A DNA stretch of 64,000 nt. Origin: Eubacteriales bacterium (GTDB lineage Bacteria > Bacillota > Clostridia > Oscillospirales > CAG-272). Where the stretch lies: the NCBI GenBank assembly GCA_034178705.1, contig JAXFQY010000039.1, positions 18,623 to 82,622 on the forward strand, read 5' to 3'. Each line of letters starts with the position of its first letter. Position 1 is the first letter of the stretch. Both the position numbers and the translations under genes were made by a program. Positions 10,265 to 53,064 of this stretch are shown here, one piece after another. Under the pieces are notes generated by a model that was not told the DNA's origin, searched no databases, and was given only the letters and a program-made list of their open reading frames with translations.

Positions 10265-10347
10265 GGGATTATGGGAAAAAAGCAATTTCAGAAAAACAGG
10301 GAGAATTCTTTTCTGTCGGGGGTTTTGGAAAAACCCTGTCTGCCCCC

Positions 10348-10376
10348 TTGAATTGTTGCATCTTTCATGTTATACT
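10348..10376 (+). promoter_or_regulatory. Predicted sigma-A promoter of the sugar-kinase gene
   Basis: TTGAAT (10348-10353), a 17-nt spacer, then TATACT (10371-10376), about 50 nt upstream of the ATG at 10428. Confidence 0.4.
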
Positions 10377-10427
10377 ACCGTTGAATCAGTCTGTACATAT
10401 AAAAATTAAACAGGAAGGATTATAGAT

Positions 10428-11711: not shown

Positions 11712-11717
11712 GCAAAC

Positions 11718-12155: not shown

Positions 12156-12177
12156 AATCCGATTTTTACGGAGAGCT

Positions 12178-12942
12178 ATGCTTGCCTATTCTCTTTGCTC
12201 CGGCTCGTCCGGAAACTCCTATTTCATCCGAGGAGACGCTTCCTCGATTCTGATCGATGCGGGAAGATCCGCACGCTACATTACCTCTGCGCTTTGTGAC
12301 TGCGGAAGTGGCATGGGGGAGATATCCGCTGTATTTGTCACACACAATCACAGCGATCATATCTCCGCATTGCCGGTTCTTTGCCGGCAGTATGCTTTTG
12401 ATATTTTCTGTACACCGGGCAGTGCCGATGCATTGCTCGGTGTCGGTATTCCGGAAAGCAGGATCCGTCGGATTCTTCCGGGAAACAGAATTGCTGTCGG
12501 AGACTTTTCCGTTTGCGCTTTTGAAACTCCGCATGATGCCTGCGGCAGCGTTTGCTACCGGGTTTCCGACGGATGCTGCTCTCTTGCTGTTGCGACGGAC
12601 ATCGGATATGTATCCGATTCTGTTTTTGAATGTCTTTTCGGCTGCTCCGCCGTTGCAGTGGAGTCGAATCATGACATTGACCGTCTTCGCCGCGGACCGT
12701 ATCCCGTATTTTTAAAACAGCGGATTCTTTCCGAAAGCGGACATCTTTCCAATGACCGCTGCGCCGCTCTTCTTCCCCGGCTTTATGACAGTGGAACACG
12801 GCATTTTCTTCTTGCACATCTGAGCCGCGAAAACAATGATCCGGACCTGGCTTTTGAAACGGCAAGCCGGGCTTTATCCGGCTGTGATGCAGAGCTTGCC
12901 GTTGCCTTGCCCGAAAAGCCGGTTTGTTTTTTCAGGGGGTAG
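12178..12942 (+). CDS. MBL-fold metallo-hydrolase (YycJ/WalJ-like)
   Basis: The ORF is trimmed to the ATG at 12178, preceded by a ggagag RBS. MLAYSLCSGSSGNSYFIRGDASSILIDAG and the HxHxDH motif VTHNHSDH are present. It sits next to rlmH, as yycJ does in B. subtilis. Confidence 0.85.
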   Translation: MLAYSLCSGSSGNSYFIRGDASSILIDAGRSARYITSALCDCGSGMGEISAVFVTHNHSDHISALPVLCRQYAFDIFCTPGSADALLGVGIPESRIRRILPGNRIAVGDFSVCAFETPHDACGSVCYRVSDGCCSLAVATDIGYVSDSVFECLFGCSAVAVESNHDIDRLRRGPYPVFLKQRILSESGHLSNDRCAALLPRLYDSGTRHFLLAHLSRENNDPDLAFETASRALSGCDAELAVALPEKPVCFFRG

Positions 12943-15835: not shown

Positions 15836-17722
15836 ATGCAGCATACAACAGACATTGTGATTATCGGCGCAGGACATGCAGGAGTAGAGGCGGCGCTTGC
15901 TGCGTCACGGCTCGGTCTTTCCACCGTGCTGTTCACCTTAAGTCTTGACGCTATTGCCAATATGCCCTGCAATCCGTCGGTAGGCGGAACGGCCAAGGGG
16001 CACCTGGTCTATGAGATTGATGCCCTCGGAGGGGAGATGGGACGCGCGGCTGATGCCGTAACGCTTCAAAGCCGGACCCTTAACACCGGTAAGGGCGCTG
16101 CCGTCCGCTCCAAGCGGATACAGGCGGACCGCGCCGCTTACCGACTATATATGAAGCACACAGTGGAGCGCGCCCCGCACCTTGATCTGATTCAGGATGA
16201 AGTGACTGAGCTGCTGACAGAACCGCTGCCGGATGGGCGGCGCCGTCTCTGCGGGGTTGTTACGCGCGCGGGGGAAACCTATTTGTGCCGCGCGGCAGTG
16301 ATCTGCGCCGGAACCTATCTCGGCGGCAGAATCCATATGGGGGAGCACAGCTGGGCATCCGGACCGGACGGACAGCTTCCCGCTTCCGGGCTGACAGCCT
16401 CTCTTGCTGCGCTCGGTTGTTCGCTGCGCCGCTTCAAAACCGGAACACCGCAGCGTATCGATCGCCGGACAATTGATTTTTCCCGCTTGGAGATTCAGGA
16501 GGGGGAGCCGGACCCGGCACCGTTTTCGGCACTGACCGACCCCGCACATTTTTCCGGTTTTACCGGAATTCCCTGTCATATCGTCTATACGACCGAAAAA
16601 ACACACGCTGTGATTCAAAAAAACATCGGAAGGAGTGCAATGTACTCCGGAAGAATTCATGCTGTAGGACCGCGTTATTGTCCCTCCATTGAGGACAAAA
16701 TTGTTCGCTTTGCGGACAAGGAGCGGCATCAGCTTTTTCTGGAGCCGACTGGAGCAGAAACAAATGAGATGTATCTGCAGGGTTTTTCCACATCGATGCC
16801 TGCAGAAGTCCAGGAGGAGATGGTACATACCCTTCCCGGTTTTGAGGAAGCGCATATCATGCGCTATGCCTATGCCATCGAATATGACTGCGTTGACCCG
16901 CTTTCCCTGACGCCTGAACTGGAATTCAAAGAGATTGCCGGACTTTACGGAGCCGGACAATTTAACGGGACTTCCGGCTATGAGGAAGCGGCGGCACAGG
17001 GGCTTGTCGCCGGTGCAAACGCCGCTCTGCGTCTGCTTGGGCGCCCTGCGCTCAGTCTTCCGCGTTCTTCTTCCTACATCGGTACGCTGATCGACGATCT
17101 TGTGACAAAGGGAACGAATGAGCCGTACCGTATGATGACCTCTCGCTCAGAATACCGTCTTCTGCTTCGGCAGGATAACGCCGATCTGCGTCTGACTCCG
17201 CAGGGGTACGACCGCGGACTTGTCGGGGAGGAACAATACCGTATATTTTCCGATCGCCGCCGGGCAATCGAGGGGGAGATTACCCGTCTCTCCGAAACCA
17301 CTTTGCCGCCCTCTGCCGAGGTTAACGCCATGCTCTCCGCACATAACTCCGCACCGCTTACAACCGGCTGTCGTATGGCGGAACTTCTGCGAAGGCCGGA
17401 GCTTGATCTGACGGCACTCCGTTCGGTCGATTCCGCTGCGCCCGCGCTTTCCCGCGGCGTTCTCGAAAGTGTGGAGACGGCGGTCAAATATGAGGGGTAC
17501 GTCCGGAAACAGCTGGACGCTGCCGAGCGCGCAAAAAAAATGGAGCAGATGCTGATTCCCGACGATATTGATTATCATGCCGTTTCCGGACTGAGGCTTG
17601 AGGCTGCGGAGAAGCTTTCCCGAATCCGCCCGCGGAACATCGGGCAGGCAAGCCGAATCAGCGGCGTCAATCCCGCCGATATTACCGTTTTGCTGATCCG
17701 GCTGAAATCCGGAAAGGAATAA
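15836..17722 (+). CDS. mnmG: tRNA uridine 5-carboxymethylaminomethyl modification enzyme MnmG (GidA)
   Basis: 628 aa. FAD-binding N-terminus DIVIIGAGHAGVEAALAASRLG, plus GPRYCPSIEDKIVRF and GQFNGTSGYEEAAAQG motifs. Confidence 0.95.
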   Translation: MQHTTDIVIIGAGHAGVEAALAASRLGLSTVLFTLSLDAIANMPCNPSVGGTAKGHLVYEIDALGGEMGRAADAVTLQSRTLNTGKGAAVRSKRIQADRAAYRLYMKHTVERAPHLDLIQDEVTELLTEPLPDGRRRLCGVVTRAGETYLCRAAVICAGTYLGGRIHMGEHSWASGPDGQLPASGLTASLAALGCSLRRFKTGTPQRIDRRTIDFSRLEIQEGEPDPAPFSALTDPAHFSGFTGIPCHIVYTTEKTHAVIQKNIGRSAMYSGRIHAVGPRYCPSIEDKIVRFADKERHQLFLEPTGAETNEMYLQGFSTSMPAEVQEEMVHTLPGFEEAHIMRYAYAIEYDCVDPLSLTPELEFKEIAGLYGAGQFNGTSGYEEAAAQGLVAGANAALRLLGRPALSLPRSSSYIGTLIDDLVTKGTNEPYRMMTSRSEYRLLLRQDNADLRLTPQGYDRGLVGEEQYRIFSDRRRAIEGEITRLSETTLPPSAEVNAMLSAHNSAPLTTGCRMAELLRRPELDLTALRSVDSAAPALSRGVLESVETAVKYEGYVRKQLDAAERAKKMEQMLIPDDIDYHAVSGLRLEAAEKLSRIRPRNIGQASRISGVNPADITVLLIRLKSGKE

Positions 17723-17724
17723 CC

Positions 17725-18462
17725 ATGGATCATTTTGCTGAGACAGAAAAACTGGCGGCATCCATTTTTGCACAAAACGGATGCGAACAGTATACCGTCC
17801 TCCTTCCGCGCTTCTCCGCTTTTGGCGATCTCCTTCTGCGGGAGAACGAAAAGCATAATCTGACGGCGATCCGTTCCGCAGAGGATGTGTGGCTCCGGCA
17901 TTTTGCCGATTGCCTTCTTTTTGCTGATTTTTTCAATACACGTGCAACCCTGATTGATGTCGGATGCGGCGGCGGTTTTCCTTCCGTTCCCCTGGCACTT
18001 GCCTGCCCTGCTCTGAAGGTTACCGCGTGCGACAGTACAAAGAAAAAAACCGATTTTGTCTCCCTTGCGGCACAAACCCTTGCTCTTGAGAATTTGCGGA
18101 CCCTTTGCGCCCGCGCTGAGGAGGCCGGAAAAAGCCCTGTCTGGCGCGAACGCTTTGATTTTGCTTCTGCCCGCGCCGTTTCCGCTTTGCCCGCCCTTGC
18201 TGAGTATTGTTTGCCGCTTGTCCGTGTCGGTGGCTGTTTTGCCGCCTTTAAAGGAAAAGACGCTGAAGTTGAGCTTGCTGCAGCCGAGCCGATGATTGCC
18301 AATCTGGGAGGAAAAACGGACCGAATTTTGCATAAAACGCTCCTCGCTCCCGACGGAGAAGCGATCGAGCGCTCCTTGATTATCATTCGCAAGATTCGCC
18401 CCACTCCGGCTGTTTTTCCGCGAAAAAACAGCGTTATTCAGAGAGAGAAGACGCGAACATAA
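17725..18462 (+). CDS. rsmG: 16S rRNA (guanine527-N7)-methyltransferase RsmG (GidB)
   Basis: 245 aa. It starts 3 nt after mnmG, has the SAM motif LIDVGCGGGFPSVPLAL, and follows the canonical mnmG-rsmG pairing. Confidence 0.9.
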   Translation: MDHFAETEKLAASIFAQNGCEQYTVLLPRFSAFGDLLLRENEKHNLTAIRSAEDVWLRHFADCLLFADFFNTRATLIDVGCGGGFPSVPLALACPALKVTACDSTKKKTDFVSLAAQTLALENLRTLCARAEEAGKSPVWRERFDFASARAVSALPALAEYCLPLVRVGGCFAAFKGKDAEVELAAAEPMIANLGGKTDRILHKTLLAPDGEAIERSLIIIRKIRPTPAVFPRKNSVIQREKTRT

Positions 18463-37482: not shown

Positions 37483-37509
37483 CCCCGCTTCTCCCCCAGA
37501 GAAGCGGGG
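37483..37509 (+). terminator. Terminator hairpin between the convergent thiI and ACP genes
   Basis: ccccgcttctc (37483-37493), a 5-nt loop, then gagaagcgggg (37499-37509), followed by ttattttgt on the plus strand. Confidence 0.65.
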
Positions 37510-37752
37510 TTATTTTGTACAGCGAGAAAGGATGATATCAACCATTTCTCCGACGCATTTCATCGTGGATATTTCACCCATTTTGAATTTCATGCCGAAG
37601 CGACGCTCAACCGCGTGGATGATGTTGATATGCTCCAGACTGTCCCATCCGTCAATATCCTTTGCGGTGGTCTCCGGAAAAAGCGTGATTTTTTCATCGA
37701 AAATATCTGAAAAAATTTTGTTCAGTTCTACATATACATTTTCTCTTGTCAT
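37510..37752 (-). CDS. Acyl/peptidyl carrier protein (DltC-like stand-alone carrier)
   Basis: 80 aa. The phosphopantetheine attachment motif DGWDSLEHINIIHAVE contains the DSL serine. It is the last gene of the MBOAT-DHHW-FkbH operon. Confidence 0.8.
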   Translation of the reverse strand: MTRENVYVELNKIFSDIFDEKITLFPETTAKDIDGWDSLEHINIIHAVERRFGMKFKMGEISTMKCVGEMVDIILSRCTK

Positions 37753-37777
37753 CGGAATCGTTCCTTTCTTTTACTCT

Positions 37778-39562
37778 TCAATCGAACTTTGCCCGCTTGA
37801 TTTCACATGGCAGCGGAGCGGCATCGGAGGCGATTTGCCAAAGTGTATTTCCCTGTTCATCTTCCGAGAGTTTTTCAAAACCGAGCTCACCGAGCAGATT
37901 CCGTACCATTCCGTTTTTTGCCGTAGGATAATAATGCCCGCGCAGAATGCGCACGCCCTGTTTTTTTGCGGTTTCGAGCAAAACATTGCGCATAAGCTGT
38001 TCCATTCCGCGTTTCAGAACACGGCAGCTCATGATCCACAGCAGAATATCTGCCGTATCCCCCTCTTTTTTCGCAATGATCACCGAAACAACCCCGTTAT
38101 CCCCGAAGCGGTCGGAGAGCTTTCCGCATATCCGGATATAATCGGGGCTTGCGGCAAGTGCTGTGATTTCTGCTTCCGTATAGCGGCGGGTGGTGAGGTT
38201 GAACTGATTGCTTTTGTTTGCGAGCTGTGCAATGCGTTTCAGGTATATTTCCGGGAAATCGCCGATCTGTGCAACCATATCGAGGCTGCGCAGATACTCC
38301 CCGTAATCGGAGAAGGCGTGCTCGAGTTTGGTTCTTTGCGCGTTTTCACGGTACATGGCGTTTCGCGCCATATCCTCTTTTGAGAGGGAGAGCGGCTCAA
38401 AATAACCGCCGCGGTCGATGATCCTGATGTAGTCATTGGGATCGGTCAACTCCGGAACGGCTGCTCCGCGGATGTTTTCCCGTACGATATGCCGTTCCGC
38501 GGGATTGTCGTCCGCGAAGACGATGCAGTCCGGCAGGAGAGAAAGTGACGCAACCGTTTCGAGAAGATTGACGTCCTTGCGCTCCCAGTTGGCCTTGATT
38601 ACGGCAAAATCCTCCGGGCGAAGGACCCCGTCCGGATGCCGGAGCCCGTCAAGCGCGTTTTCCTCGTCGTTTTTGGAGGCGACCGTAAGTACGACCCCGG
38701 TCATTGACAGGTCTTTTATGTAGCGCTGAAACTCCCGGAAGGCCTCTCCGGTTGCGGTTTCCTCCCCGATTTCCAGGCCCGCCTGTCCGACGTCTCCGAC
38801 GACACCGCCCCAGAGGGTGTTATCACAGTCGAGCGCAAGAAGCTTTTTGTTTTTTCCGCAGATCGCCTTGATGAGGGAGGCGACGCTGTGACAGAGCATC
38901 GGAACGCAGGGCGTTGCGGGACTTTGCTTATAAAGATACCATTCTTTCGGATCGTCCCATGCGTCCAGTCCGCAGACCGCGGAAAGATACGCGATATCCT
39001 GAATATGAAAGGCGCTTCGGGAGAGGGCGGTCTTCGCAAAGCGGGCATTCAGACGGTTGATGAAATTGACGCGCCCGCGAAAGTCGACCGCGTCGAGATT
39101 CCCGAGCAGACGGAAAGAGGGCAGCTCGAAGTTGTTCTGGAGAATTTCGCAGTGATAGCGCTCGGAGAGGGCGTCCCAAAGCGCCTGATAGCGACCGAAT
39201 TCCTGCTCAAGCTTTTTGTCGGCGGAATCCCGGTCGTCGGAGAGCTCCGGTAGCGAGGACAGATTGCGGTTGCAGGTATGAAGGTAAACAATTTCCGGTG
39301 CAAACGCATCCAGCTCCGGCGTGCCGAACATTCCGTCCTGCCAGAAGCGGTTATATTCGGATTCGTAAAATTCCGGCTCTACGCCGGCGTCAAGCAGAAA
39401 AAGCTCCAGTATTGGACGGATTATCCCGGTTGTTGCGCCGCCAAGGAGGGCAATGCGTTTTTTTGTGCGCGCGGAGCCGTCCGAAAGCAGCTCCTTTTTC
39501 AGCTTTCGCCTGTTCTGCAGAATGAATTCCGCGTCAAATGGGTAAGAAAGCGCTTCCAGCAT
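37778..39562 (-). CDS. FkbH-like HAD-IIIC family protein (candidate carrier-protein loading enzyme)
   Basis: 594 aa. It has the HAD motif I LALDCDNTLWGGVVGD, a HAD core (VASKNDE, FADDNP), and a C-terminal GNAT-like region with the FkbH-type IMSCRVLKRG cysteine motif. Confidence 0.85.
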   Translation of the reverse strand: MLEALSYPFDAEFILQNRRKLKKELLSDGSARTKKRIALLGGATTGIIRPILELFLLDAGVEPEFYESEYNRFWQDGMFGTPELDAFAPEIVYLHTCNRNLSSLPELSDDRDSADKKLEQEFGRYQALWDALSERYHCEILQNNFELPSFRLLGNLDAVDFRGRVNFINRLNARFAKTALSRSAFHIQDIAYLSAVCGLDAWDDPKEWYLYKQSPATPCVPMLCHSVASLIKAICGKNKKLLALDCDNTLWGGVVGDVGQAGLEIGEETATGEAFREFQRYIKDLSMTGVVLTVASKNDEENALDGLRHPDGVLRPEDFAVIKANWERKDVNLLETVASLSLLPDCIVFADDNPAERHIVRENIRGAAVPELTDPNDYIRIIDRGGYFEPLSLSKEDMARNAMYRENAQRTKLEHAFSDYGEYLRSLDMVAQIGDFPEIYLKRIAQLANKSNQFNLTTRRYTEAEITALAASPDYIRICGKLSDRFGDNGVVSVIIAKKEGDTADILLWIMSCRVLKRGMEQLMRNVLLETAKKQGVRILRGHYYPTAKNGMVRNLLGELGFEKLSEDEQGNTLWQIASDAAPLPCEIKRAKFD

Positions 39563-39584
39563 AACAGCCTCCGTTCCTGGTCTT

Positions 39585-41060
39585 TTAATAGTTGCTCATC
39601 CGCTCCAGAGCGCTGCTGCCACTGCCGCCGCAGGCGACAAACGCACAGGTGGAGCAGAGAAAATCGGTAATACCATGCTCTTTCATGAAGGAAATCGGGT
39701 TCAGCTTGAAGTAGCGGAAGTCGACAACGTAGATTTCCTCAAAGGAGCCGGTCAGAAAAGGCACAAGCGCATTTCCGTAGCTGTCCTTGATGAGAAAGAG
39801 TTTTCTGCCGTTCTTGCAGTCGGTGGTGATGTGGGTCACGCGGTCGTCCGAACCGATGAATACACAGTAGGAGGCCTCCGTTGAAACCCAGTCGAAGAAA
39901 AGACTGCTCTTGAAGCCGTTCTGATAGTATCCGTCGTAGTATTCGGTTTCATAATTGTTTGACGGCTTGTAATAAACAAAGGTTTCCGGGTTGTTTTTGA
40001 TGACCGGGTCGTAGTCGGAGTAGGCATACATGGTTCCGACATAACCCTCCCGCTCATATTTCGTATAAGTGGAAAGATCGGCAAACGGGACGTCTGCGGC
40101 TTTTGCAAAAGCCTGCGCGGCGTAATAAGCACCGAGGGTTGTCCAGTGATGGTCAGTACGGGTGTAAATATTCTCGTTGACATGGGGCAGCAGCGCCTCA
40201 TACGCGTTGACCTCGGTTACATTTTTCAGCTTCGAGGCCAGATAGGAAATGTGGTCCTTCTGGCTGTTTGAATAGGCTGCGTACTTTTCCGGCAGATAGT
40301 AAGCGACTGCGGTCGGCGTTGTCATGGACCAGACCTTGATATCCGGACCGAGCTGTGCTTTGTATTCGTTTAGGGCGTTTGCATAGTCGAGCGCGCAAGC
40401 ATAGCTGCCGCCGTAGAGCATGATGGCCCGCTTGTTATAAACGAGAATCCCGTTGCTTGCACCTCTGAACTCCCCTTCGTCATCGGGCGTCTCGGTTTGC
40501 GCAGGGGCGGTGGTGACCGGATTTGTCGTTGGCGGGGCGGTTACGGGAGGAGCCGTTGTTTCTGTCGGATCGGTTGTGACAGAGGGCTCGTCGGTGGTCG
40601 GAGGCGCATCTGTTATCGGCGGATCCACCGGAGGCGTATCAATCGGGGGCTTGTCTTCTCCCCCAAGCGTTCCCCCGTGAATCTTTACTCCGCCGAGGCG
40701 GAAGCCGGTCGCCTCCTTGAGAGAGGCACCGAGATCCATCCAGGTTTGCCGGCCGGGAACGGTATCTGTATAATATTTAAGGATACCGGATGTATAATTT
40801 CCGTTGACAAGAGCAGAAACGGAAAACTCCGGGAACTCAGTAAGCTTTCGTTTTTCCGTTTCCGAAAGCTCCGGGCGCTTGAGCACAAGAAGCGCGCCGG
40901 CAATGAGCAGAACGGCAGTTCCGAGCACGATACAGTTTGCCGCTGCGCCGATTTTTTGCAGGTGCCCCGCGCTGAGCGCGGAAGACTTTCCGCCCGGCAA
41001 TCTTGTTTTTCTTCTGTCCGGTTTATTCCGGAACCGGTTTTCCGGAGGGTGCTTTGTCAT
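39585..41060 (-). CDS. DHHW-family extracytoplasmic protein (AlgX/DltD-like SGNH-type transferase candidate)
   Basis: 491 aa. N-terminal TM anchor AAANCIVLGTAVLLIAGALLVL, a Pro/Thr-rich stalk, and the eponymous motif RTDHHWTTLGAYYAAQAF. Confidence 0.85.
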   Translation of the reverse strand: MTKHPPENRFRNKPDRRKTRLPGGKSSALSAGHLQKIGAAANCIVLGTAVLLIAGALLVLKRPELSETEKRKLTEFPEFSVSALVNGNYTSGILKYYTDTVPGRQTWMDLGASLKEATGFRLGGVKIHGGTLGGEDKPPIDTPPVDPPITDAPPTTDEPSVTTDPTETTAPPVTAPPTTNPVTTAPAQTETPDDEGEFRGASNGILVYNKRAIMLYGGSYACALDYANALNEYKAQLGPDIKVWSMTTPTAVAYYLPEKYAAYSNSQKDHISYLASKLKNVTEVNAYEALLPHVNENIYTRTDHHWTTLGAYYAAQAFAKAADVPFADLSTYTKYEREGYVGTMYAYSDYDPVIKNNPETFVYYKPSNNYETEYYDGYYQNGFKSSLFFDWVSTEASYCVFIGSDDRVTHITTDCKNGRKLFLIKDSYGNALVPFLTGSFEEIYVVDFRYFKLNPISFMKEHGITDFLCSTCAFVACGGSGSSALERMSNY

Positions 41061-41071
41061 CTTTTATCACC

Positions 41072-42475
41072 TCAGAAATTCGCATACAGAAAGGGGTTGG
41101 ATGTGGCGGAAACAAGCAGAATGCTTGAAATCACGAGGAGGCCAACGTTGCAGACAACCGTTCCGGCGCCGCACAGAATCGTTCCGGCGGGGGTCCGTTC
41201 GAGACGGCGCCGGAGCGCGGGAATCACGGGGAAGCAGAACAGCAGCGCCACGGCGATGAGAAACAGATTGTTTGCCGCGGTATGCCCCAACAGGCTGTCA
41301 CAAAAGGCATTTCCGTTTGCGCCGATCAGTCCGCGCAGGAAGGCGCCGAGCTGCGCTGTATCCTCAAAACGGAAGATTCCGAACCCGACAATCAGAATGA
41401 GCTTTGTGCAAACATGCTTTATCCAAAGCGGGATTTTTTTCATGCGTTTCTTGCCGAGCATTGTTTCTATCAGGATAAACAGCCCGAAGTAAAGACCCCA
41501 GATGATATAATTCCAGGCCGCACCGTGCCAGATACCGGTGGCCAGCCAGACCAGAAAGAGTCCTCCGTATTTCCGCTGCCGTCCGAAAATCGGAACATAA
41601 AGCAGGTAGTCGCGGAAAAAAGAACCGAGGGTAATGTGCCAGCGCTGCCAGAATTCCGCGATGGATTTGCAAAGGAAGGGATAGTTGAAATTCTCCGGAA
41701 ACGGAAGCCCGAAAAGCCCGGCAATCCCGATTGCCATGTCGCTGTAGCCGGAAAAATCAAAATACATCTGCAAAGCAAAAAGCATGGCGCCGAACCAACA
41801 GCCGAGGACCGAGACCGAGGCGACATCCGCACCGAATAGTTCGGAAGTCACGGAGGAGAGCATGTCGGCTATCAGTACTTTTTTGGCAAGTCCCGCAATC
41901 AGGCGGCTTGCGCCGGCGCTCAGCTGTTTGACCGAGACTTCCCGCGTTCCGAGAGAGTCCCTCAACTCAACGTATCGGACAATCGGACCGGAAACAACAC
42001 AGGGAAACAGGGACACATAAAGAAGAAAGCGCCCGAAATTTTTTTCCGGTTCTACCTTCTCCCACTGCACGTCAAGCAGATAGGAGATAAGCCGGAAGGT
42101 GTAGAAGCTGATTCCCAGAGGAAGCCCGAGCTTCGGTACGGCAAAAGAGGCACCGAACAGCGCGTTGATGTTTTCGGTAATAAATCCGGCATATTTGAAA
42201 ACCGCAAGAAGCCCAAGGTTGACAAGAATGCCGAGTCCGCACAGAAAAGCGGCACCGCGCGAACCGGCGTAACGCTTCAGACAGAGCCCGATAAACCAGT
42301 TGAAAAGCGCAGCAAGGACAAGCAACGGCAAAAAACTCATTGCCCCCCATGCATAGAAAACAAGGGAGCAAACAAGCAGCACGATATTCCGATAGGCAGG
42401 CTTTTTGAAAGCATAGTAACAGATCAGGGAAAGCGGCAGAAAAAAATATAAAAAGAAAAGATCCGAAAAATTCAT
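41072..42475 (-). CDS. MBOAT-family membrane O-acyltransferase (DltB/AlgI-like)
   Basis: 467-aa polytopic protein. It has AEFWQRWHITLGSFFRDYL and the catalytic-His region GIWHGAAWNYIIWG. Confidence 0.9.
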   Translation of the reverse strand: MNFSDLFFLYFFLPLSLICYYAFKKPAYRNIVLLVCSLVFYAWGAMSFLPLLVLAALFNWFIGLCLKRYAGSRGAAFLCGLGILVNLGLLAVFKYAGFITENINALFGASFAVPKLGLPLGISFYTFRLISYLLDVQWEKVEPEKNFGRFLLYVSLFPCVVSGPIVRYVELRDSLGTREVSVKQLSAGASRLIAGLAKKVLIADMLSSVTSELFGADVASVSVLGCWFGAMLFALQMYFDFSGYSDMAIGIAGLFGLPFPENFNYPFLCKSIAEFWQRWHITLGSFFRDYLLYVPIFGRQRKYGGLFLVWLATGIWHGAAWNYIIWGLYFGLFILIETMLGKKRMKKIPLWIKHVCTKLILIVGFGIFRFEDTAQLGAFLRGLIGANGNAFCDSLLGHTAANNLFLIAVALLFCFPVIPALRRRLERTPAGTILCGAGTVVCNVGLLVISSILLVSATSNPFLYANF

Positions 42476-42711
42476 GCGTTATCAGCTTCCGATCATTAAA
42501 TATAGTTTTCGGAAAATTTATGAAAAATATTCCATTCGGACGTTAAATCCGCTGTTGCTTTTATTGTATCGCAGAACGGATGAAAAAGCAAGACATCGGC
42601 AAATTTTGTCCGGAAAAGGTTTTTCCTGCGGTTTGACGATCTTTTTTGCCGAAAGGTTCCCCGCACTTCCCTTTTATTAAGCGGCCGGTTTTTGGAATGT
42701 TTGCAACAGAA

Positions 42712-42735
42712 CCCCCCGACCATTCGGACGGGGGG
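42712..42735 (-). terminator. Hairpin downstream of the pgm / pseudogene unit
   Basis: ccccccg (42712-42718), a 10-nt loop, then cgggggg (42729-42735). On the minus strand it is followed by TTCTGTTG. Confidence 0.45.
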
Positions 42736-43125: not shown

Positions 43126-44862
43126 TTACAGGCCGCAGAGCTGCCGTGCAACGGCGGGGCAGGAGGAGAGCTTTTTTTCAAGCGCTTCGCGTGTCTCGGC
43201 GGAGCAAAGAAAGTATACTTTGATTTTCGGCTCTGTGCCGGAAGGCCGGAGCAGAACCACATCTCCGTTTTCGAGGGCATAGCGGAGCACGTCTGATGCC
43301 GGAAGCCCCGTTGGGGTCTTCTTCCTTGTTTTCAGGTCGGTCAGATAGCCCGCGAGATAGTCACCGATTCCGACAACGCGGCTGCCGCAGAGCTCTTTCG
43401 GCGGTTCTGCGCGTAGGGATGCGGTTACTCCTGCCATTTTTTTCGCGCCGTCAAGTCCCGGAAAGTCCAGATTCTCGGTCAGTTCGCCGTATTGCCCGTA
43501 ACGCGCGAGCAGCCTGTCGAGTGCGTCGGCGAGCGTCATTCCTTTTGTGCGGTAATAGGCAGCCATTTCTGCGATCAGCATGGAAGCGCAGACCGCGTCT
43601 TTGTCGCGCGCATAGGTGCCCTTAAGATAGCCGTAGCTTTCCTCAAAGCCGAGCAGATACGTGCCTTTTCCGGCTTCCTCGTGCTTTTTGATAACCTCTC
43701 CGATGAATTTGAAGCCGGTGAGGACATTATACATTTCGATATGGTTGGCTTCACAGATGCGCGTAAAAAGCTCGGTGGAGACAATGGTTTTGACGGCGTA
43801 TGCGTCTGCGGGAACGCCGCCTTTTTCCCGGAGGACCGCTACAATATAGTCAAGCAGAAGCGCCCCCATCCCGTTTCCGGTAATGCGGACAAACTTCCCG
43901 TCCCGGTTGCGCGTCATGACCCCCACCCGGTCGCAGTCGGGGTCGGTAGCGATGACAAGGTCGGCACCGGTTTCCTCGGCGAGTGCGATTCCGGGGAGAA
44001 AAACATCCGCAAGCTCCGGGTTCGGTTTTTTGACGGTCGGAAAATCTCCGTCCGGCGTGGCCTGGCTCGGTACAACCGACAGCTTTTCAAAGCCCAGCCT
44101 GCGGAGAATTTCCGGGACAAGCTTCCAGCCGGCGCCATGCAGCGGGGTGTAAACGATGCTCATTTCCTTTGCTGCGTGCAGGGCGCCTTCGGGAGACATC
44201 CGCTCCGCGAAAACCTTGTCAAGGAAGGCTTTGTCGATCTCCTCCCCGATCAGGATAACGCTGCCGTTGCGTTTTGCTTCCTCCAGGTCGCAGGTGCGAA
44301 CCCCGTCAAATAAATCGACGGCGGCGATTTCCCTGCTTACGGTATCGGCATGCTCGGGGGGAAGCTGTGCACCGTCCTCCCAGTAAGCCTTATAGCCGTT
44401 ATATTCCTTGGGATTGTGGCTTGCCGTGATGTTGATGCCCGCAATACAGCCGAGGTAGCGCAGGGCAAAGGAAAGCTCGGGCGTCGGGCGCAGATCGTCG
44501 AAAAGATAAACCTTGATGCCGTTTGCGGCAAGAACCGATGCGGCACGCTCCGAATAGAGACGGGAGTTTTTTCGGCTGTCGTAGGCGATGGCAACGCCGC
44601 GTTCACAGGCATTTTCTTTCTTGATCAGTTCGCAGAGCCCCTGTGTTGCCTGCATGACCGTATAAACATTCATTCGGGCAAGTCCGGCTGCCATGATGCC
44701 GCGAAGACCTGCGGTGCCGAAGCTCAGCCCTTGAGAAAACCGGCTTTCGATTTCTGCGGGATTGTTGCGGATGTTTTCCAGCTCCCGGCGGGTATCCGCG
44801 TCCAGTTTTTCATAGGCAAGCCATTTTTCATAGTTTTTTTGCGCGCTTTCGTTGCAGACCAT
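43126..44862 (-). CDS. Phosphoglucomutase/phosphomannomutase family protein (alpha-D-phosphohexomutase)
   Basis: The ORF is trimmed to the ATG at 44862 (MVCNESAQKNYEKWL), preceded by an aggaga RBS. It has the phosphoserine loop ITASHNPKEYNGYK, the metal loop ATDPDCDRVG and the sugar/phosphate loops GFEESYGY and RPSGTEPKIKVY. Confidence 0.9.
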   Translation of the reverse strand: MVCNESAQKNYEKWLAYEKLDADTRRELENIRNNPAEIESRFSQGLSFGTAGLRGIMAAGLARMNVYTVMQATQGLCELIKKENACERGVAIAYDSRKNSRLYSERAASVLAANGIKVYLFDDLRPTPELSFALRYLGCIAGINITASHNPKEYNGYKAYWEDGAQLPPEHADTVSREIAAVDLFDGVRTCDLEEAKRNGSVILIGEEIDKAFLDKVFAERMSPEGALHAAKEMSIVYTPLHGAGWKLVPEILRRLGFEKLSVVPSQATPDGDFPTVKKPNPELADVFLPGIALAEETGADLVIATDPDCDRVGVMTRNRDGKFVRITGNGMGALLLDYIVAVLREKGGVPADAYAVKTIVSTELFTRICEANHIEMYNVLTGFKFIGEVIKKHEEAGKGTYLLGFEESYGYLKGTYARDKDAVCASMLIAEMAAYYRTKGMTLADALDRLLARYGQYGELTENLDFPGLDGAKKMAGVTASLRAEPPKELCGSRVVGIGDYLAGYLTDLKTRKKTPTGLPASDVLRYALENGDVVLLRPSGTEPKIKVYFLCSAETREALEKKLSSCPAVARQLCGL

Positions 44863-44927
44863 TTTTTTCTCCTGATGATAAAATAACTGTTGGAATAAGC
44901 GTGGAAACCGGCAGCGTTTTTGTCGGC

Positions 44928-45194
44928 TTATTTCCCTGCTCCGGCTTCGGCGAGCGCCTCTCCGAGGGCGCGGGCCAGCTGATCGGGACAGGAGGTCGGA
45001 CGGGGACCGCAGCGGACCCCCGAAAGGCGCTTTTCGGCCTCTTCTGCCTTCATCCCTTCGACAAGGCGGCAGATTCCGGTTGTGTTTCCGTTGCAGCCGC
45101 CGGTGAAGCGGCAGGCGGTAATCACGCCGTTTTCGTCCAGGTCGATATCGATCCGGGAAGAGCAAACGCCCTTCGGATAATAGATTTTATGCAT
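44928..45194 (-). CDS. TSCPD-domain protein (TIGR03905-like)
   Basis: 88 aa. MHKIYYPKGVCSSRIDIDLDENGVITACRFTGGCNGNTTGICRLVEGM ... TSCPDQLARAL matches the small stand-alone TSCPD family. Confidence 0.8.
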   Translation of the reverse strand: MHKIYYPKGVCSSRIDIDLDENGVITACRFTGGCNGNTTGICRLVEGMKAEEAEKRLSGVRCGPRPTSCPDQLARALGEALAEAGAGK

Positions 45195-48660: not shown

Positions 48661-49422
48661 ATGGCTGGCATCATCGCATTTGCAAACCAAAAGGGCGGCG
48701 TTGGGAAAACAACCAGCGCGGTCAACATCACCGCCTCTCTCGGCGTTCTCGGGAAAAAGGTTCTTTTGGTAGACTTGGATCCCCAGGGGAACTCCTCGAG
48801 CGGGCTTGGAATCAATAAAAAAAGCATCCGTGCCTCCTCGTACGAGGTGCTGATCGGCAGCGCTTCCGCTGAAACGGCTATTATGCAGACGCAATTTGAT
48901 TGTGTGTCGGTTATGCCTTCCAATATCAATTTGGCCGGTGCGGAATTTGATTTGTTTGAAATGGAGAAAAGGGAATATCGGCTGAGGGATGCCATTGAGC
49001 CCTTGAGAAAGGAATTTGAGTACATTCTGATTGACTGCCCGCCCTCCCTCGGCATGCTGACTGTGAATGCGTTGACTGCCGCAGACGGATTGATTATCCC
49101 GATGCAGTGTGAGTTTTATGCGCTGGAGGGGCTTGGCATGCTGATGAATACGACCTCAAAGATCAAGCAGTATTATAATCCGCGTCTTGAAATTACGGGG
49201 ATTCTGCTGACTATGTATAACGGACGTCTTGTTCTGTCCATGCAGGTGGTCCGGGAACTGAAAAAGTATTATGCGGACAAGCTCTTTTCCCAGACGATTT
49301 CCCGGAATGTCAAGTTGTCTGAAGCGCCGGGTTTTGGGCTGCCTGTCTATTACCACGACCGCTACTGTAAGGGGGCGTCTGAGTATCTTGCGGTTGCGAA
49401 GGAACTCATTACAAGGATATAA
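48661..49422 (+). CDS. parA: Chromosome partitioning ATPase ParA (Soj)
   Basis: 253 aa with the deviant Walker A ANQKGGVGKTTSAVN. It is paired with parB. Confidence 0.93.
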   Translation: MAGIIAFANQKGGVGKTTSAVNITASLGVLGKKVLLVDLDPQGNSSSGLGINKKSIRASSYEVLIGSASAETAIMQTQFDCVSVMPSNINLAGAEFDLFEMEKREYRLRDAIEPLRKEFEYILIDCPPSLGMLTVNALTAADGLIIPMQCEFYALEGLGMLMNTTSKIKQYYNPRLEITGILLTMYNGRLVLSMQVVRELKKYYADKLFSQTISRNVKLSEAPGFGLPVYYHDRYCKGASEYLAVAKELITRI

Positions 49423-49446
49423 TATATAAAGGAAGGGAATTTGCGA

Positions 49447-50322
49447 ATGGCATCGAGAAATTCCGGCCTCGGAAGAGGACTTGACAGCATTCTTTTTGAT
49501 AATTCGGCTAATTCGGCGCCCTCTTCCACGGCGATCAGCGTGTCCCGACTTGAGGCGCGCGCAGAACAGCCGCGAAAGAATTTTGATCAGCAGTCGTTGC
49601 AGGCGCTTGCGGAGTCAATTCGTACACACGGCGTGCTTCAGCCGCTGATTGTGCGGGAAAGCGGAAACGGCTTTTACCAGATTGTTGCGGGCGAACGCCG
49701 ATTCCGCGCGGCAAAGCTTGCGGGCCTGACTGAGGTTCCGGTTGTTGTTGTCACGACCGATGATCTCACAACCGCACAGCTTGCGCTTGTTGAAAACGTA
49801 CAGCGTGAAGACCTGAATGCTGCCGAAGAGGCGTTCGCGTATCGGGAGCTTTCCGAGGTCTGGCATATGACACAGGAGGAAATCGCTGCAAAAATAGGGA
49901 AGAGCCGCAGCGCGGTTGCCAACGCCATTCGTTTGACAGAGCTGCCGGGAGAGCTGATGGAGCTTCTGCGTACCGGAGCGATCTCCGCAGGACACGCCCG
50001 TGCCTTGCTGGCGGTGGAAGACAGGGAAGCGCAGCTTCGCTTGGCGGAGGCTGCCAGGGACGGCGGAATGACCGTGCGCGAACTGGAAAAAGCCGTCAAA
50101 AGAGAAACGGAAAAAGAAAAAAATGTCGCAAAAGAAAACTTCGACAGGGAACTTGTCGATTATGCCAGGGAGCTCGAGAATAAAACGCGTGAGGCCCTTG
50201 GAAGGCGTGTGAAAATCAATGCGGCAGGCCGTGAAAAGAGCATTAAAATCTATTTTGAGGACAATGATGATTTGGACGAGCTTTTGCGGCTTCTTACCGG
50301 CGGAAAACGAATCGAACTGTAA
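49447..50322 (+). CDS. parB: Chromosome partitioning protein ParB (Spo0J)
   Basis: The ATG at 49447 gives MASRNSGLGRGLDSIL; the ORF track starts at the TTG at 49441. It has the ParB box GERRFRAAKLAG, the arginine-patch region and an HTH (TQEEIAAKIGKSRSAVANAIRL). Confidence 0.93.
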   Translation: MASRNSGLGRGLDSILFDNSANSAPSSTAISVSRLEARAEQPRKNFDQQSLQALAESIRTHGVLQPLIVRESGNGFYQIVAGERRFRAAKLAGLTEVPVVVVTTDDLTTAQLALVENVQREDLNAAEEAFAYRELSEVWHMTQEEIAAKIGKSRSAVANAIRLTELPGELMELLRTGAISAGHARALLAVEDREAQLRLAEAARDGGMTVRELEKAVKRETEKEKNVAKENFDRELVDYARELENKTREALGRRVKINAAGREKSIKIYFEDNDDLDELLRLLTGGKRIEL

Positions 50323-50371
50323 TCAAAAAACCAATTTGTGTTAACAATACCAAAAATATCAAGGAGTCGTT

Positions 50372-51658
50372 ATGATTGACATTAAATTTCTGAAGGAAAA
50401 CCCGGAGCTTGTAAAGGAGAACATCCGGAAAAAGTTCCAGGATCACAAGCTGCCGCTTGTCGATGAGGTGATTGCGCTTGATGCGGAGCGGCGGGAATGC
50501 GAAACAAAAGGAAATGCCCTGCGTGCGGAGAAAAACCGTGCCTCCAAGGAAATCGGGATGTATATGGCGAAGGGCATGAAGGAGGAGGCCGAAAAGGCCA
50601 AGGCCGCCGTGACCGAGGCAACACGGGGGCTGGAAGAGCTTGAGGCGCGCACGGCAAAGGTTTCTGAGGAGATCAAGGTGCGCATGATGCGGATTCCGAA
50701 CATCATTGATCCGTCTGTGCCGGTTGGTAAGGATGACAGCGAAAACGTCGAACGGGAGCGTTTCGGGGAGCCGGTCGTGCCGCCGTTTGAGATTCCGTAT
50801 CATACCGAAATTATGGAGCGTTTCTGCGGCATTGATCTTGACAGTGCACGACGCGTCGCCGGAAACGGGTTCTATTATCTGATGGGCGACATTGCGCGTC
50901 TGCAAAGCGCGATCCTTTCTTATGCCCGCGATTTTATGATCGGCCGGGGCTTCACCTATTGCATTCCCCCCTTTATGATCCGCAGTGATGTTGTCACCGG
51001 CGTTATGAGCTTCGATGAAATGAGCGCCATGATGTATAAAATCGAAGGAGAGGATCTGTATCTCATCGGTACGAGCGAGCATTCCATGATCGGGAAGTTC
51101 ATTGATCAGGTGCTTGAGGAGAAGGACCTGCCCTATACACTGACAAGCTACAGCCCCTGCTTCCGCAAGGAGAAAGGTGCGCATGGTATTGAGGAGCGCG
51201 GCGTCTACCGGATCCATCAGTTTGAAAAGCAGGAAATGATTGTCGTTTGTAAGCCGGAGGAGAGTCCGATGTGGTTTGACCGGCTGTGGCACAATACGGT
51301 CGATTTCTTCCGGACGTTGGATATTCCGGTGCGCACGTTGGAATGCTGTTCCGGAGATCTTGCCGATCTGAAGGTGAAAAGCCTTGATGTGGAGGCATGG
51401 TCCCCGCGTCAGAAAAAGTATTTCGAGGTTGGAAGCTGCTCCAATCTCGGCGATGCACAGGCGCGCCGTCTGCGCATCCGTGTGAACGGAGAAAACGGCA
51501 AGTATTTTGCCCACACTCTCAATAACACGGTTGTGGCGCCCCCGCGTATGCTGATCGCCTTTCTGGAAAACAATCTGACCGCTGACTTTACAGTAAAGAT
51601 CCCGAAAGCACTGCAGCCCTATCTGGGCGGCATCGAAATGCTTTATCCGAAGAAATAA
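50372..51658 (+). CDS. serS: Seryl-tRNA synthetase
   Basis: 428 aa. It has the N-terminal coiled-coil arm MIDIKFLKENPELVKENIRKK and a class II core (CFRKEKGAHG, RIHQFEKQEM, GSCSNLGDAQARR). Confidence 0.95.
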   Translation: MIDIKFLKENPELVKENIRKKFQDHKLPLVDEVIALDAERRECETKGNALRAEKNRASKEIGMYMAKGMKEEAEKAKAAVTEATRGLEELEARTAKVSEEIKVRMMRIPNIIDPSVPVGKDDSENVERERFGEPVVPPFEIPYHTEIMERFCGIDLDSARRVAGNGFYYLMGDIARLQSAILSYARDFMIGRGFTYCIPPFMIRSDVVTGVMSFDEMSAMMYKIEGEDLYLIGTSEHSMIGKFIDQVLEEKDLPYTLTSYSPCFRKEKGAHGIEERGVYRIHQFEKQEMIVVCKPEESPMWFDRLWHNTVDFFRTLDIPVRTLECCSGDLADLKVKSLDVEAWSPRQKKYFEVGSCSNLGDAQARRLRIRVNGENGKYFAHTLNNTVVAPPRMLIAFLENNLTADFTVKIPKALQPYLGGIEMLYPKK

Positions 51659-51670: not shown

Positions 51671-52210
51671 ATGAGTTTTTGGGAGGCTGTTGTTTCCTAC
51701 TATTCCGATCTGCGTTTGGAAAATCTTCCGATTTCAGAACCGGAAAATCTGCTTTGGGTGCTTTTGGGGCTGTACATCGGCATGGTTTTGGCGTTGTTGG
51801 CTTCTTTCCTCGTGCGCAGCCGTCTCGGTACAATTGTGGATTCTCTTGTTGACCGGGGCGCTGTCACTCCGGAAACCGCTGTTACTCCTGCAGAGGGGGG
51901 CTTTGACCGTCCCTCGTTTTTGCGGGAGCTGCGGCAGGGGAAGCTGCTTCGCAAAACGATTTGCGCAGTCTTGCCTGAAGAACAGGAAAAAACAGCGTCG
52001 GACCCCCTGGATTCTCTGCGAACCGCGCGGTTTTATCTGCCGGCGGACAGATGTGTGACAGCACAAAAGCGTTTTTCCCGAAAGGGGAACGGGCTTGGGT
52101 CTATTTTGCTTGCTTTTGCGCTGATAACGGTTTCGGCCGTGTTGCTTTATCTGCTGCTCCCCCTTCTTTTGCAGCTGTCAGACAACGCGATTACCATGCT
52201 GCGGAGGTGA
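51671..52210 (+). CDS. Membrane protein, unknown function
   Basis: 179 aa. It has two hydrophobic helices (LLWVLLGLYIGMVLALLASFLV and ILLAFALITVSAVLLYLLLPLLL) and is tightly packed between serS and the MORN gene. Confidence 0.5.
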   Translation: MSFWEAVVSYYSDLRLENLPISEPENLLWVLLGLYIGMVLALLASFLVRSRLGTIVDSLVDRGAVTPETAVTPAEGGFDRPSFLRELRQGKLLRKTICAVLPEEQEKTASDPLDSLRTARFYLPADRCVTAQKRFSRKGNGLGSILLAFALITVSAVLLYLLLPLLLQLSDNAITMLRR

Positions 52211-52212
52211 AA

Positions 52213-53064
52213 ATGAACAACAGCAATCTTGTCACCGGCTACGGGAACTCTCCGGGCAGAACGCCGCGCCGACGTGTGAAACGGGTCTCAAAAAGAAAGA
52301 GAATTTTCGTTGGTATTGTCTGCGCCGTGCTTGTTTTTGCCTTGATTATCGGGTTGATGGCGCTTTTCGGTTGGAGGCTGCTTCGCCGTACGACAGAGGA
52401 CGGTACAACGATCCTCTTTTTCGGAATTATGCAGGACGGGAGTCCGACTTCCGGAAAAATAACTTATTCAACCGGGCTGACGGGCATTCTGGATTCGAAA
52501 ACCGGCGTGATTACCTATTCCAACGGAAGCAGTTATAAAGGGGGACTGGATGACTGTTTCCGAAAAGACGGACAGGGGATTTTGACCTTTGCTTCCGGAA
52601 ACAAATACGAGGGATCCTTTGTTCACGACGCGCTTACTGGGCAGGGAACCCTGCTGTATTCGGACGGGGCCAGCTACGTGGGTGGCTTCAAGGATGGAAA
52701 AAAAGACGGAACGGGAACGTACACCTGGGCGGACGGATCGGTTTATACCGGCGGTTTCTGTGAGGATGCCGTAAACGGGCAGGGAAAGTTTGTCTCCTCT
52801 GACGGTTGCTCCTATGAAGGGGAATATGTAAACGGAATCAAGGAGGGGCAGGGAACAGCGATCTATGCCAACGGCGACAAATACATCGGCGGCTTTTCCG
52901 GCGATATGCGAAACGGAACGGGAACCTATACCTGGGCCAACGGTGAGAACTACACCGGAGATTTTAAGGACAACAATATTACCGGCTACGGGAAATATAC
53001 CTGGCCGTCCGGACGGACCTACGAAGGGAAGTTTGAGAACGGAGTTATGGTTCGGAAAGAATAA
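52213..53064 (+). CDS. Membrane-anchored MORN-repeat protein
   Basis: The ORF is trimmed to the ATG at 52213, preceded by a ggaggtg RBS. It has the TM helix IFVGIVCAVLVFALIIGLMALF followed by about eight Y.G....G...G.G repeats (YSDGASYVGGFKDGKKDGTGTYTWADGSVYTGGF...). Confidence 0.8.
   Translation: MNNSNLVTGYGNSPGRTPRRRVKRVSKRKRIFVGIVCAVLVFALIIGLMALFGWRLLRRTTEDGTTILFFGIMQDGSPTSGKITYSTGLTGILDSKTGVITYSNGSSYKGGLDDCFRKDGQGILTFASGNKYEGSFVHDALTGQGTLLYSDGASYVGGFKDGKKDGTGTYTWADGSVYTGGFCEDAVNGQGKFVSSDGCSYEGEYVNGIKEGQGTAIYANGDKYIGGFSGDMRNGTGTYTWANGENYTGDFKDNNITGYGKYTWPSGRTYEGKFENGVMVRKE

Follow-up and report, generated by a model that had tools for sequence, protein, structure and literature searches.

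An FkbH-type loader and a carrier protein conserved beside an MBOAT–DHHW pair point to carrier-fed acylation of the clostridial cell envelope

Four adjacent genes at 37510-42475 of a 64,000-nucleotide stretch of Eubacteriales bacterium DNA (assembly GCA_034178705.1, contig JAXFQY010000039.1, positions 18,623 to 82,622; the whole stretch is hereafter called the window) encode, in the order in which they would be transcribed, an MBOAT acyltransferase, a membrane-anchored DHHW-family protein, an FkbH-type loader and a stand-alone acyl carrier protein (ACP). This operon probably adds a C3 hydroxy-acyl ester, not described so far, to the cell envelope. We read it as a self-contained system for extracytoplasmic polymer acylation, in which the carrier protein would act as the acyl donor and a relay of the PatA1/PatB1 type would be combined with charging by an FkbH-type enzyme. 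That an MBOAT relay is fed here by a carrier protein we consider highly likely; the full chain, including a glyceryl group and a glycopolymer acceptor, we favor with appreciable reserve. The original prediction, made from the letters of the window alone, had proposed a Dlt-like operon of four tightly spaced, co-directional genes, and the listing of open reading frames (ORFs) bears out this layout: all four genes lie on the minus strand, as do their features given below, and are separated by spacers of 11, 22 and 25 nt.

First, the membrane half of the operon has what marks MBOAT–SGNH pairs such as PatA/PatB, PatA1/PatB1, AlgI/AlgJ/AlgX and WssH/WssI, namely the His motifs, a C-terminal FxYxxF and an extracytoplasmic SGNH partner. 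The 467-aa MBOAT (41072..42475) matches PF03062 (E = 2.5e-24), shows at least eight hydrophobic segments by hydropathy, and aligns with the DltB structures 6bug and 8jem (E ~1e-24) with both His motifs in register. WHITL (residues 279-283; 41627..41641), which holds the first conserved MBOAT His (H280), aligns with WHMSL of DltB, and WHG (residues 316-318; 41522..41530), which holds the catalytic His (H317), aligns with the WHG of DltB; the MBOAT with a WHG catalytic-His region that had been read from the sequence is thus confirmed by both the Pfam match and the DltB alignment. Against the DltB equivalog model TIGR04091 the protein scores 152.6 bits, compared with a curated cutoff of 375, and it is homologous to DltB without being its equivalog. 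At its C-terminus, the hexapeptide FLYANF (41075..41092), with Tyr464, fits the FxYxxF acyl-shuttle motif. In DltX as in MBOATs of the PatA type, the tyrosine of this motif picks up the acyl group at the MBOAT and carries it to the SGNH partner (PMC12148441). The same motif forms the terminal six residues in 59 of the 61 MBOATs encoded beside FkbH-like genes, one of the two exceptions being cut by the end of a contig.

The partner is a 491-aa DHHW-family, SGNH-like transferase (39585..41060; PF14286, E = 1.3e-53), with an additional weak AlgX match and no DltD match in the Pfam search. Its nearest solved structure is 4nzk, an uncharacterized DHHW protein of Eubacterium siraeum (E = 1.3e-78), and it also matches Bacillus cereus PatB1 (5v8e; E = 3e-6). 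A tie between 4nzk and the present type of operon was considered and dropped, since no homologue named Eubacterium siraeum appeared among the matches of the DHHW search. A basic N-terminus is followed by a lone transmembrane helix by hydropathy (residues 42-60; 40881..40937), which under the positive-inside rule would place the catalytic domain outside the membrane, and then by a Pro/Thr-rich stalk at about residues 134-192 (40485..40661; 49% Pro plus Thr over residues 126-195). The membrane anchor, the stalk and the outward-facing catalytic domain had all been anticipated, and the PF14286 match, the hydropathy profile and the positive-inside rule are in agreement with them. Three catalytic blocks can be recognized: the DHHW motif itself (Block V Asp/His, residues 303-306; 40143..40154), aligned with the DHHW of PatB1 and 4nzk; the KDSYG block (residues 425-429; 39774..39788), which contains the putative nucleophile Ser427 and aligns with LKDSF of PatB1 and KDSYG of 4nzk; and DFRY (residues 447-450; 39711..39722), which corresponds to the DxRY oxyanion-hole block of DHHW enzymes and aligns with DLRH of PatB1. 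The roles of the PatB1 catalytic residues and the definition of the DxRY block are those of PMC9487903.

Second, the gene that follows encodes an FkbH-type protein of 594 aa (37778..39562) that clears the cutoffs of both TIGR01686 (E = 1.6e-75; 254.3 bits against 146.65, with positions 3-320 of the 323-position model covered) and TIGR01681 (48.6 bits against 35.75), in keeping with its earlier assignment as an FkbH-like HAD-IIIC protein with DCDNT and MSCRV motifs. Its AlphaFold2 model (mean pLDDT 87) comprises three domains: an N-terminal domain (about residues 1-235), a HAD-IIIC phosphatase domain (about 236-400) and a GNAT-fold acyl-transfer domain (about 430-594). Foldseek superposes the first two on Bacteroides fragilis BF1531 (3slr; TM 0.90), the sequence match to the same PDB entry spanning residues 19-395, and finds the third to resemble GNAT acetyltransferases, the GNAT fold being one that binds pantetheine. 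Residues 236-585 are 28% identical to a 359-aa protein of the zwittermicin cluster on Bacillus thuringiensis plasmid pBMB422, which we take to be ZmaN because of its place among the genes of that cluster; the record itself says only "HAD-IIIC family phosphatase." DxDxT, SKN, DDxP, NQxN and MSCRVxxRG are in register between the two proteins. DCDNT (residues 245-249; 38816..38830), which is the DxDxT nucleophile motif (motif I) of HAD enzymes, aligns with DLDCT of ZmaN, and MSCRV (residues 511-515; 38018..38032) is identical in ZmaN; it contains Cys513, the putative acyl-S-enzyme site, located in the model where a strand of the GNAT fold passes into a helix. DCDNT, SKN, DDNP and MSCRV are all invariant among 41 relatives. 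FkbH-type enzymes normally yield a glyceryl-carrier protein from a glycolytic intermediate. Work on the ansamitocin, zwittermicin and tetronomycin systems is cited in PMC3679948.

Third, the operon supplies a carrier protein and lacks an adenylating enzyme. The 80-aa product of the last gene (37510..37752) carries DSL at residues 37-39 (GWDSLEH), the codon of Ser38 lying at 37639-37641, and matches the solved putative ACP 2lml (E = 9e-15). Its PF00550 match is weak (E = 0.0018), the NCBIfam ACP models reach E = 5e-7 and all stay under their cutoffs, and no DltC-specific model matched; the proposed carrier protein with a DSL phosphopantetheine site stands on the motif and on 2lml. The PROSITE AMP-binding signature is absent in six frames of the window, and no AMP-binding Pfam match was found among the window ORFs scanned. 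FkbH-like relatives occur in at least 596 species genomes, the best 80 loci of which were analyzed, and in the 1.33 Mb of these 80 related loci the signature occurs only once, so that, as had been claimed for the operon, the adenylating enzyme is absent from it, from the window and from 79 of the 80 loci. The lone occurrence (locus L006, 12414-14951), directly 3′ of the carrier-protein gene, belongs to an 846-aa protein in which a xylose-isomerase-like TIM barrel (AP_endonuc_2) is fused to AMP-binding and AMP-binding_C domains. We considered it as a hidden DltA and rejected it as a TIM barrel/AMP-binding fusion that is an exception among the 80 loci; it might charge the same carrier with a second type of acyl group.

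How these four proteins relate to known systems is best seen by taking the halves separately. As in the Dlt pathway, a small phosphopantetheinyl carrier, an MBOAT and an extracytoplasmic transferase of the SGNH superfamily are encoded together, and an FxYxxF shuttle is present. Unlike Dlt, the operon has no DltA and employs instead an FkbH-type HAD/GNAT enzyme as its loader; the partner is a DHHW protein and not DltD; FxYxxF is fused to the MBOAT's C-terminus and does not reside on a DltX microprotein; and the predicted acyl group is a neutral hydroxy-acyl, whereas that of Dlt is a cationic amino-acyl. With DltA, a DltB equivalog, DltD and a separate DltX all missing, the operon is, as judged from its sequence, to be placed outside the Dlt pathway. 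The description as Dlt-like accordingly holds for the donor logic, which is carrier-fed, and fails for the membrane half, which with its DHHW partner and MBOAT-fused FxYxxF is nearer to PatA1/PatB1. Like the present pair, PatA1/PatB1, which O-acetylates the secondary cell wall polysaccharide of B. cereus, and CcsH/CcsI of clostridial cellulose loci combine an MBOAT with a DHHW-family partner; the DHHW, KDS and DxR(Y) blocks align with those of PatB1 (PMC9487903), and the fused C-terminal FxYxxF is shared with MBOAT/SGNH systems of the acyl-CoA type (PMC12148441). Those systems, however, have neither carrier nor loader and are considered acyl-CoA-dependent (PMC12148441), whereas here a carrier and an FkbH-type loader are co-conserved, which argues against acyl-CoA as the donor and makes an acyl-carrier protein the predicted one.

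The cytoplasmic half, in turn, resembles the FkbH-family loaders FkbH, ZmaN, OzmB, Tmn16, Mad7 and Mad14 in exceeding the TIGR01686 cutoff, in its DxDxT and MSCRV-Cys in register with ZmaN, and in the adjacent gene for a dedicated stand-alone ACP (PMC7489565). It differs from them in that its partners are envelope acyltransferases, and from the 359-aa ZmaN in particular by an additional domain of about 235 aa at its N-terminus, which it shares with BF1531 (3slr). FkbK/FkbI dehydrogenases, an FkbG methyltransferase, a FabH-like tetronate enzyme, polyketide synthases (PKS) and nonribosomal peptide synthetases (NRPS) were found neither in the operon nor among the scanned window ORFs, and everything that defines the methoxymalonyl-ACP and tetronate pathways thus appears to be missing here. 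The novelty of the operon is the combination of an MBOAT–DHHW pair with an FkbH/ACP pair. No published link of FkbH/HAD-IIIC proteins to MBOATs in envelope acylation was found in a full-text literature search; the literature that names FkbH and MBOAT together concerns cyanobacterial aeruginosins and not envelope acylation. This search likewise turned up no description of the combination, in line with the earlier statement that no characterized example was known, and according to a 2025 mechanistic paper the MBOAT/SGNH pathways outside Dlt have no carrier protein (PMC12148441). Glycerate-derived groups are known on bacterial surfaces: the flagellin of Campylobacter jejuni bears a pseudaminic acid modified with dimethylglyceric acid, and its flagellar glycosylation locus contains the FkbH-domain gene cj1302 (PMC7099621). 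That cj1302 might be linked to the dimethylglyceric acid group is our suggestion, which the cited paper does not state. The likeness consists in a glycerate-derived acyl on a surface glycan and an FkbH-domain gene in a glycan locus; in C. jejuni, however, the modification is made in the cytoplasm, on a nucleotide-sugar pathway, and involves no MBOAT/SGNH relay. Glyceric acid also occurs in the repeat unit of the Clostridioides difficile lipoteichoic acid (LTA) PS-III (PMC13558421).

Taken together with the catalytic motifs, these comparisons suggest the following sequence of events. In the cytoplasm, the FkbH-type enzyme would take a phosphorylated C3 acyl-phosphate as the predicted donor substrate, most likely 1,3-bisphosphoglycerate, and bind the acyl group in thioester linkage to Cys513 in the GNAT-fold domain, while the HAD domain (DCDNT) would strip the 3-phosphate. 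The resulting acyl group, predicted to be glyceryl (2,3-dihydroxypropanoyl), would then be passed to the 80-aa carrier, onto the phosphopantetheine arm at its Ser38, and the glyceryl-S-carrier protein may dock at the cytoplasmic face of the MBOAT, much as D-Ala-DltC does on DltB. There, His317 of the WHG motif would catalyze the transfer across the membrane to Tyr464 of the MBOAT's own FLYANF, from which the acyl group would move to Ser427 of the membrane-tethered DHHW/SGNH protein, and this protein would finally esterify a hydroxyl of an envelope glycopolymer, the predicted acceptor. To replace an acyl-CoA donor at an MBOAT by an acyl-carrier protein, as this scheme supposes, is a mechanistically modest step, since the phosphopantetheine thioester is the same on CoA and on holo-ACP, and DltB already takes a donor on a carrier protein (PMC12148441).

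Fourth, the four genes recur together in other genomes. The best 80 loci, one of which is from Eisenbergiella tayi DSM 26961, come mostly from Lachnospiraceae and Oscillospiraceae, which are dominant in gut and rumen, and from Ruminococcus and Ruminiclostridium. Of the 77 loci with enough room for one, 69 have a carrier-protein gene after the FkbH-like gene, and an MBOAT is encoded on the same strand no more than 5-6 kb from the FkbH-like gene in 30 of the 42 fully flanked loci. The exact order MBOAT, DHHW (in one or two copies), FkbH, ACP is found in 26/80 loci anchored on FkbH; with DHHW as an independent anchor, MBOAT-DHHW-FkbH-ACP occurs in all four long contigs examined, each time amid different housekeeping genes. 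As the same cassette stands amid unrelated flanks, the four genes behave as a portable unit, and their conservation as such a unit, on which the original prediction depended, is supported by the neighborhoods from both anchors. A natural side-by-side comparison is offered by a metagenome-assembled Clostridium sp. (L088), which has, at positions 1-1233 of its locus, a second MBOAT and AlgX/DHHW pair (with a 378-aa partner) that lacks FkbH and ACP and lies about 3.4 kb upstream of the genome's own MBOAT-DHHW-FkbH-ACP cassette (4586-9421); a carrier-linked MBOAT can thus be set beside one without carrier genes, the latter presumably fed by acyl-CoA.

Beyond this exact order there exists a second architecture, FkbH-ACP-(tailoring genes)-MBOAT-(partner), in which the partner is AlgX-like, DltD-like, a GDSL protein or a membrane protein of about 370 aa that we call X373. 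The last follows the MBOAT in many loci of this second type and has no Pfam match; we would guess that it is an SGNH-like partner. The tailoring genes near FkbH-ACP encode a MaoC dehydratase with or without a short-chain dehydrogenase/reductase (SDR), a VOC-family protein, an aldo-keto reductase (AKR) or a split transketolase. In Eisenbergiella tayi, the second architecture sits among GT2, DUF6056, YdjC and GDSL genes, that is, in a polymer-decoration locus. The arrangement extends to Sinorhizobium meliloti, whose pSymB carries an MBOAT (C-terminus FLYQGF), a 409-aa protein, an ACP and an FkbH-like gene adjoining capsule export genes including rkpR. The 409-aa gene between MBOAT and ACP (L084, 4767-5996) is annotated as a "TonB-dependent receptor," probably wrongly, and its product, which has no Pfam match, is by position a candidate periplasmic partner of the MBOAT. 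A Niveispirillum plasmid combines FkbH-ACP-WcbI with a MaoC::KR (ketoreductase) fusion, adjoining a sulfotransferase, and in distant metagenomic relatives (33-39% identity) MaoC comes after FkbH-ACP, or genes for a methyltransferase and a polysaccharide deacetylase lie upstream of it.

The chemistry of these neighbors bears on the acyl group. A MaoC dehydratase together with a ketoreductase or SDR acting on 2,3-dihydroxypropanoyl (glyceryl)-ACP would be expected to give lactyl-ACP. The same lactyl logic has been proposed for loading modules of the FkbH-dehydratase-ketoreductase type such as BryA. That enzymes which tailor small hydroxy-acyl groups recur in these loci supports an intermediate common to them, a C3 hydroxy-acyl-ACP, and the operon of the window, having no tailoring gene, would use the glyceryl group itself. 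The operon represents one member of a broader family, whose MBOATs, with differing SGNH partners, would be supplied by FkbH-ACP, sometimes after tailoring by a dehydratase and a reductase. Five loci (L037, L045, L058, L077 and L030) have, 3′ of FkbH, genes for a MaoC dehydratase, an aldo-keto reductase and the N- and C-terminal subunits of a split transketolase, which hints at further or other C2/C3 acyl-ACP chemistry feeding the same MBOAT. A wider proposal, for which we see the chances as evenly poised, is that gut Clostridia and at least S. meliloti own a second carrier-fed MBOAT pathway beside Dlt, in which FkbH would divert 1,3-bisphosphoglycerate to an ACP, and an MBOAT, through its C-terminal tyrosine shuttle and an SGNH partner, would put glyceroyl esters on envelope glycopolymers, or lactoyl esters where MaoC and SDR are present.

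Several observations weigh against the reading of the operon as a glyceryl-transferring, carrier-fed relay that decorates a glycopolymer. The carrier protein falls below the curated cutoffs of generic ACP models; the identity to a characterized FkbH is 28%, so that the substrate specificity could differ; and no glycan-synthesis genes that would point to an acceptor polymer adjoin the operon in the window. A nearby MBOAT is missing in 12 of the 42 fully flanked loci, among them an FkbH-ACP pair beside pfkA and dnaX and the Ruminiclostridium loci, so that linkage to an MBOAT is not obligatory for FkbH-ACP. The Ruminiclostridium loci have two DHHW genes and no MBOAT within about 10 kb. Here, either the MBOAT is encoded elsewhere, or a multi-pass membrane protein of 221 aa stands in for it.

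The gene order of these loci (L018, L054, L059, L069 and L070, at about 7000-12800) is mfd, pth, DHHW, DHHW, FkbH, ACP and the gene for the 221-aa membrane protein, which has no Pfam match. A 1145-aa protein encoded 5′ of DHHW-DHHW-FkbH-ACP was examined as a disguised MBOAT and turned out to be Mfd (TRCF), with peptidyl-tRNA hydrolase next to it. A "plasmid" match from Subdoligranulum variabile contains FkbH-ACP only; neither an MBOAT nor a DHHW gene could be detected in the 7 kb around it.

Which acyl group is loaded is the point at which an alternative deserves the closest attention, since the same relay could operate with an FkbH-like enzyme that loads acetyl (from acetyl-phosphate, or from acetyl-CoA via the GNAT domain), 3-phosphoglyceryl (with its phosphate retained), glycolyl or lactyl, which the polymer would then receive in place of glyceryl. 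The characterized homologue is only 28% identical, the C-terminal domain resembles GNATs that use acetyl-CoA, and sister loci, with their genes for MaoC, SDR, VOC, AKR and transketolase proteins, clearly vary the acyl group; moreover, the family is very large and diverse (at 50% identity, 13,804 clusters for E <= 1e-3 and 4,820 for E <= 1e-30), and very few of its members have been studied. We nevertheless regard another acyl group as unlikely: the Cys motif and the residues around it are identical to those of ZmaN, no tailoring enzyme able to turn glyceryl into another group is encoded in the operon, and the HAD phosphatase motifs are all invariant, which makes sense only if a phosphate must be removed from the substrate, as in 1,3-bisphosphoglycerate.

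The proposed glyceryl relay also presupposes that the two halves of the operon work together. The MBOAT–DHHW pair could instead be an ordinary acetyl-CoA-dependent O-acetyltransferase of the PatA1/PatB1 or CcsH/CcsI type, with FkbH-ACP as a separate neighbor serving, for example, a small-molecule or lipid pathway. Such a division is made highly improbable by the spacing of 11-25 nt in one transcription unit, by the identical order in 26 plus 4 genomes with unrelated flanks, and by the FkbH-ACP-MBOAT linkage, which survives a change of SGNH partner (AlgX-like, DltD-like, GDSL or X373) and holds across phyla, in S. meliloti; nor were PKS, NRPS, FabH-like or FkbG/I/K genes found nearby in the window. 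These points outweigh, in our judgment, the existence of well-known carrier-free MBOAT/DHHW pairs (PMC9487903, PMC7710045), which are reported to use acyl-CoA (PMC12148441), together with the second MBOAT-AlgX/DHHW pair without FkbH-ACP in L088 and the occurrence of FkbH-ACP pairs without a nearby MBOAT.

That the coupled halves might act on a membrane lipid or a protein, or build glyceryl into a teichoic-acid-like backbone as with the glyceric acid of C. difficile LTA, we think very improbable, for although no glycan locus stands beside the operon in the window, glyceric acid is structural in C. difficile LTA PS-III (PMC13558421) and MBOATs elsewhere acylate lipids and proteins (PMC7710045), the characterized DHHW and AlgX SGNH partners work on polysaccharides (PMC9487903), the Pro/Thr stalk would keep the catalytic domain off the membrane, sister loci lie in glycan-decoration loci (E. 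tayi) or beside capsule export genes (S. meliloti), and an MBOAT/SGNH relay yields esters and not glycosidic linkages.

A carrier-fed relay of this kind would have several consequences. MBOAT–SGNH systems are currently split in two, with Dlt (carrier donor, DltX shuttle, DltD) on one side and all others (acyl-CoA donor, MBOAT-fused shuttle) on the other (PMC12148441). The operon breaks this split, because a fused shuttle and a DHHW partner coexist in it with a dedicated carrier protein. The loader would tap a glycolytic intermediate and need no ATP-dependent adenylation, which would make it a new loading route. If glyceroyl or lactoyl esters exist, they would represent an unrecognized surface chemistry with a possible bearing on resistance to lysozyme and phages, on immune recognition and on the hydration of polymers, and they would offer a ready explanation for the FkbH-like genes scattered in polysaccharide loci. 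If the wider proposal of a second carrier-fed pathway is true, there is a class of polymer decoration that has so far been chemically undescribed, and bacterial MBOATs with a fused shuttle are not limited to acyl-CoA donors. The S. meliloti copy beside the capsule export genes provides a genetically tractable system.

Finally, the signals around the operon and its genomic setting can be described. A promoter-like site, TTTTCA-16 nt-TATATT (42499..42526, minus strand), lies 24 nt 5′ of the MBOAT start codon; it was found in a consensus scan and is a pattern match only. A hairpin scan detected a terminator-like hairpin of the upstream gene at 42715-42728, which suggests that this gene is a separate transcription unit. 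At the other end, an 11-bp GC-rich hairpin (37483..37509, strand unspecified) occupies the 33 nt that separate the carrier-protein gene from the convergent thiI, with a T-tail on the plus strand (the thiI side) only; on the minus-strand side it is followed by an A-run, so that termination of the operon there is plausible and non-canonical. With the promoter-like site, the upstream terminator-like hairpin and the hairpin of the convergent gap, the four genes look like a single transcription unit.

The surroundings of the operon are housekeeping genes: a penicillin-binding protein, mreC, mreB, a U32 peptidase, thiI, phosphoglucomutase, htpG and a SleB-type wall hydrolase. By its gene content, the window would belong to a spore-forming member of the Clostridia. 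Further genes of the window include gyrA (951-3509) and gyrB (3741-5681), both on the minus strand; dnaA (8816-10198), recF and dnaN, likewise on the minus strand; gidA and gidB (15836-18462); parA, parB and serS (48661-51658); and rpoB and rpoC. The sign of the GC skew flips near 8-10 kb. The window covers the region of the chromosomal replication origin, and with this setting the acylation operon sits in the core, origin-proximal part of the genome and not in a variable glycan island.

A near-identical copy of the locus is present on a public metagenome contig (99.3% identity). Within the phosphoglucomutase gene, the window differs from this near-identical ENA contig by an indel of about 147 bp, and the public gene call on the contig picks, at this place, an antisense ORF without a Pfam match. 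In the window, the 679-aa ORF with phosphoglucomutase matches (43126-45194) has about 147 N-terminal residues before its first phosphoglucomutase domain and overlaps an 88-aa minus-strand ORF (44928-45194) that is called a TSCPD-domain gene on the ENA contig; the real start of phosphoglucomutase probably lies further downstream. Unrelated to the operon, a 743-aa protein with a C-terminal WG-containing beta repeat and a 337-aa protein of MORN repeats are encoded at 13548-15779 and 52051-53064, respectively.

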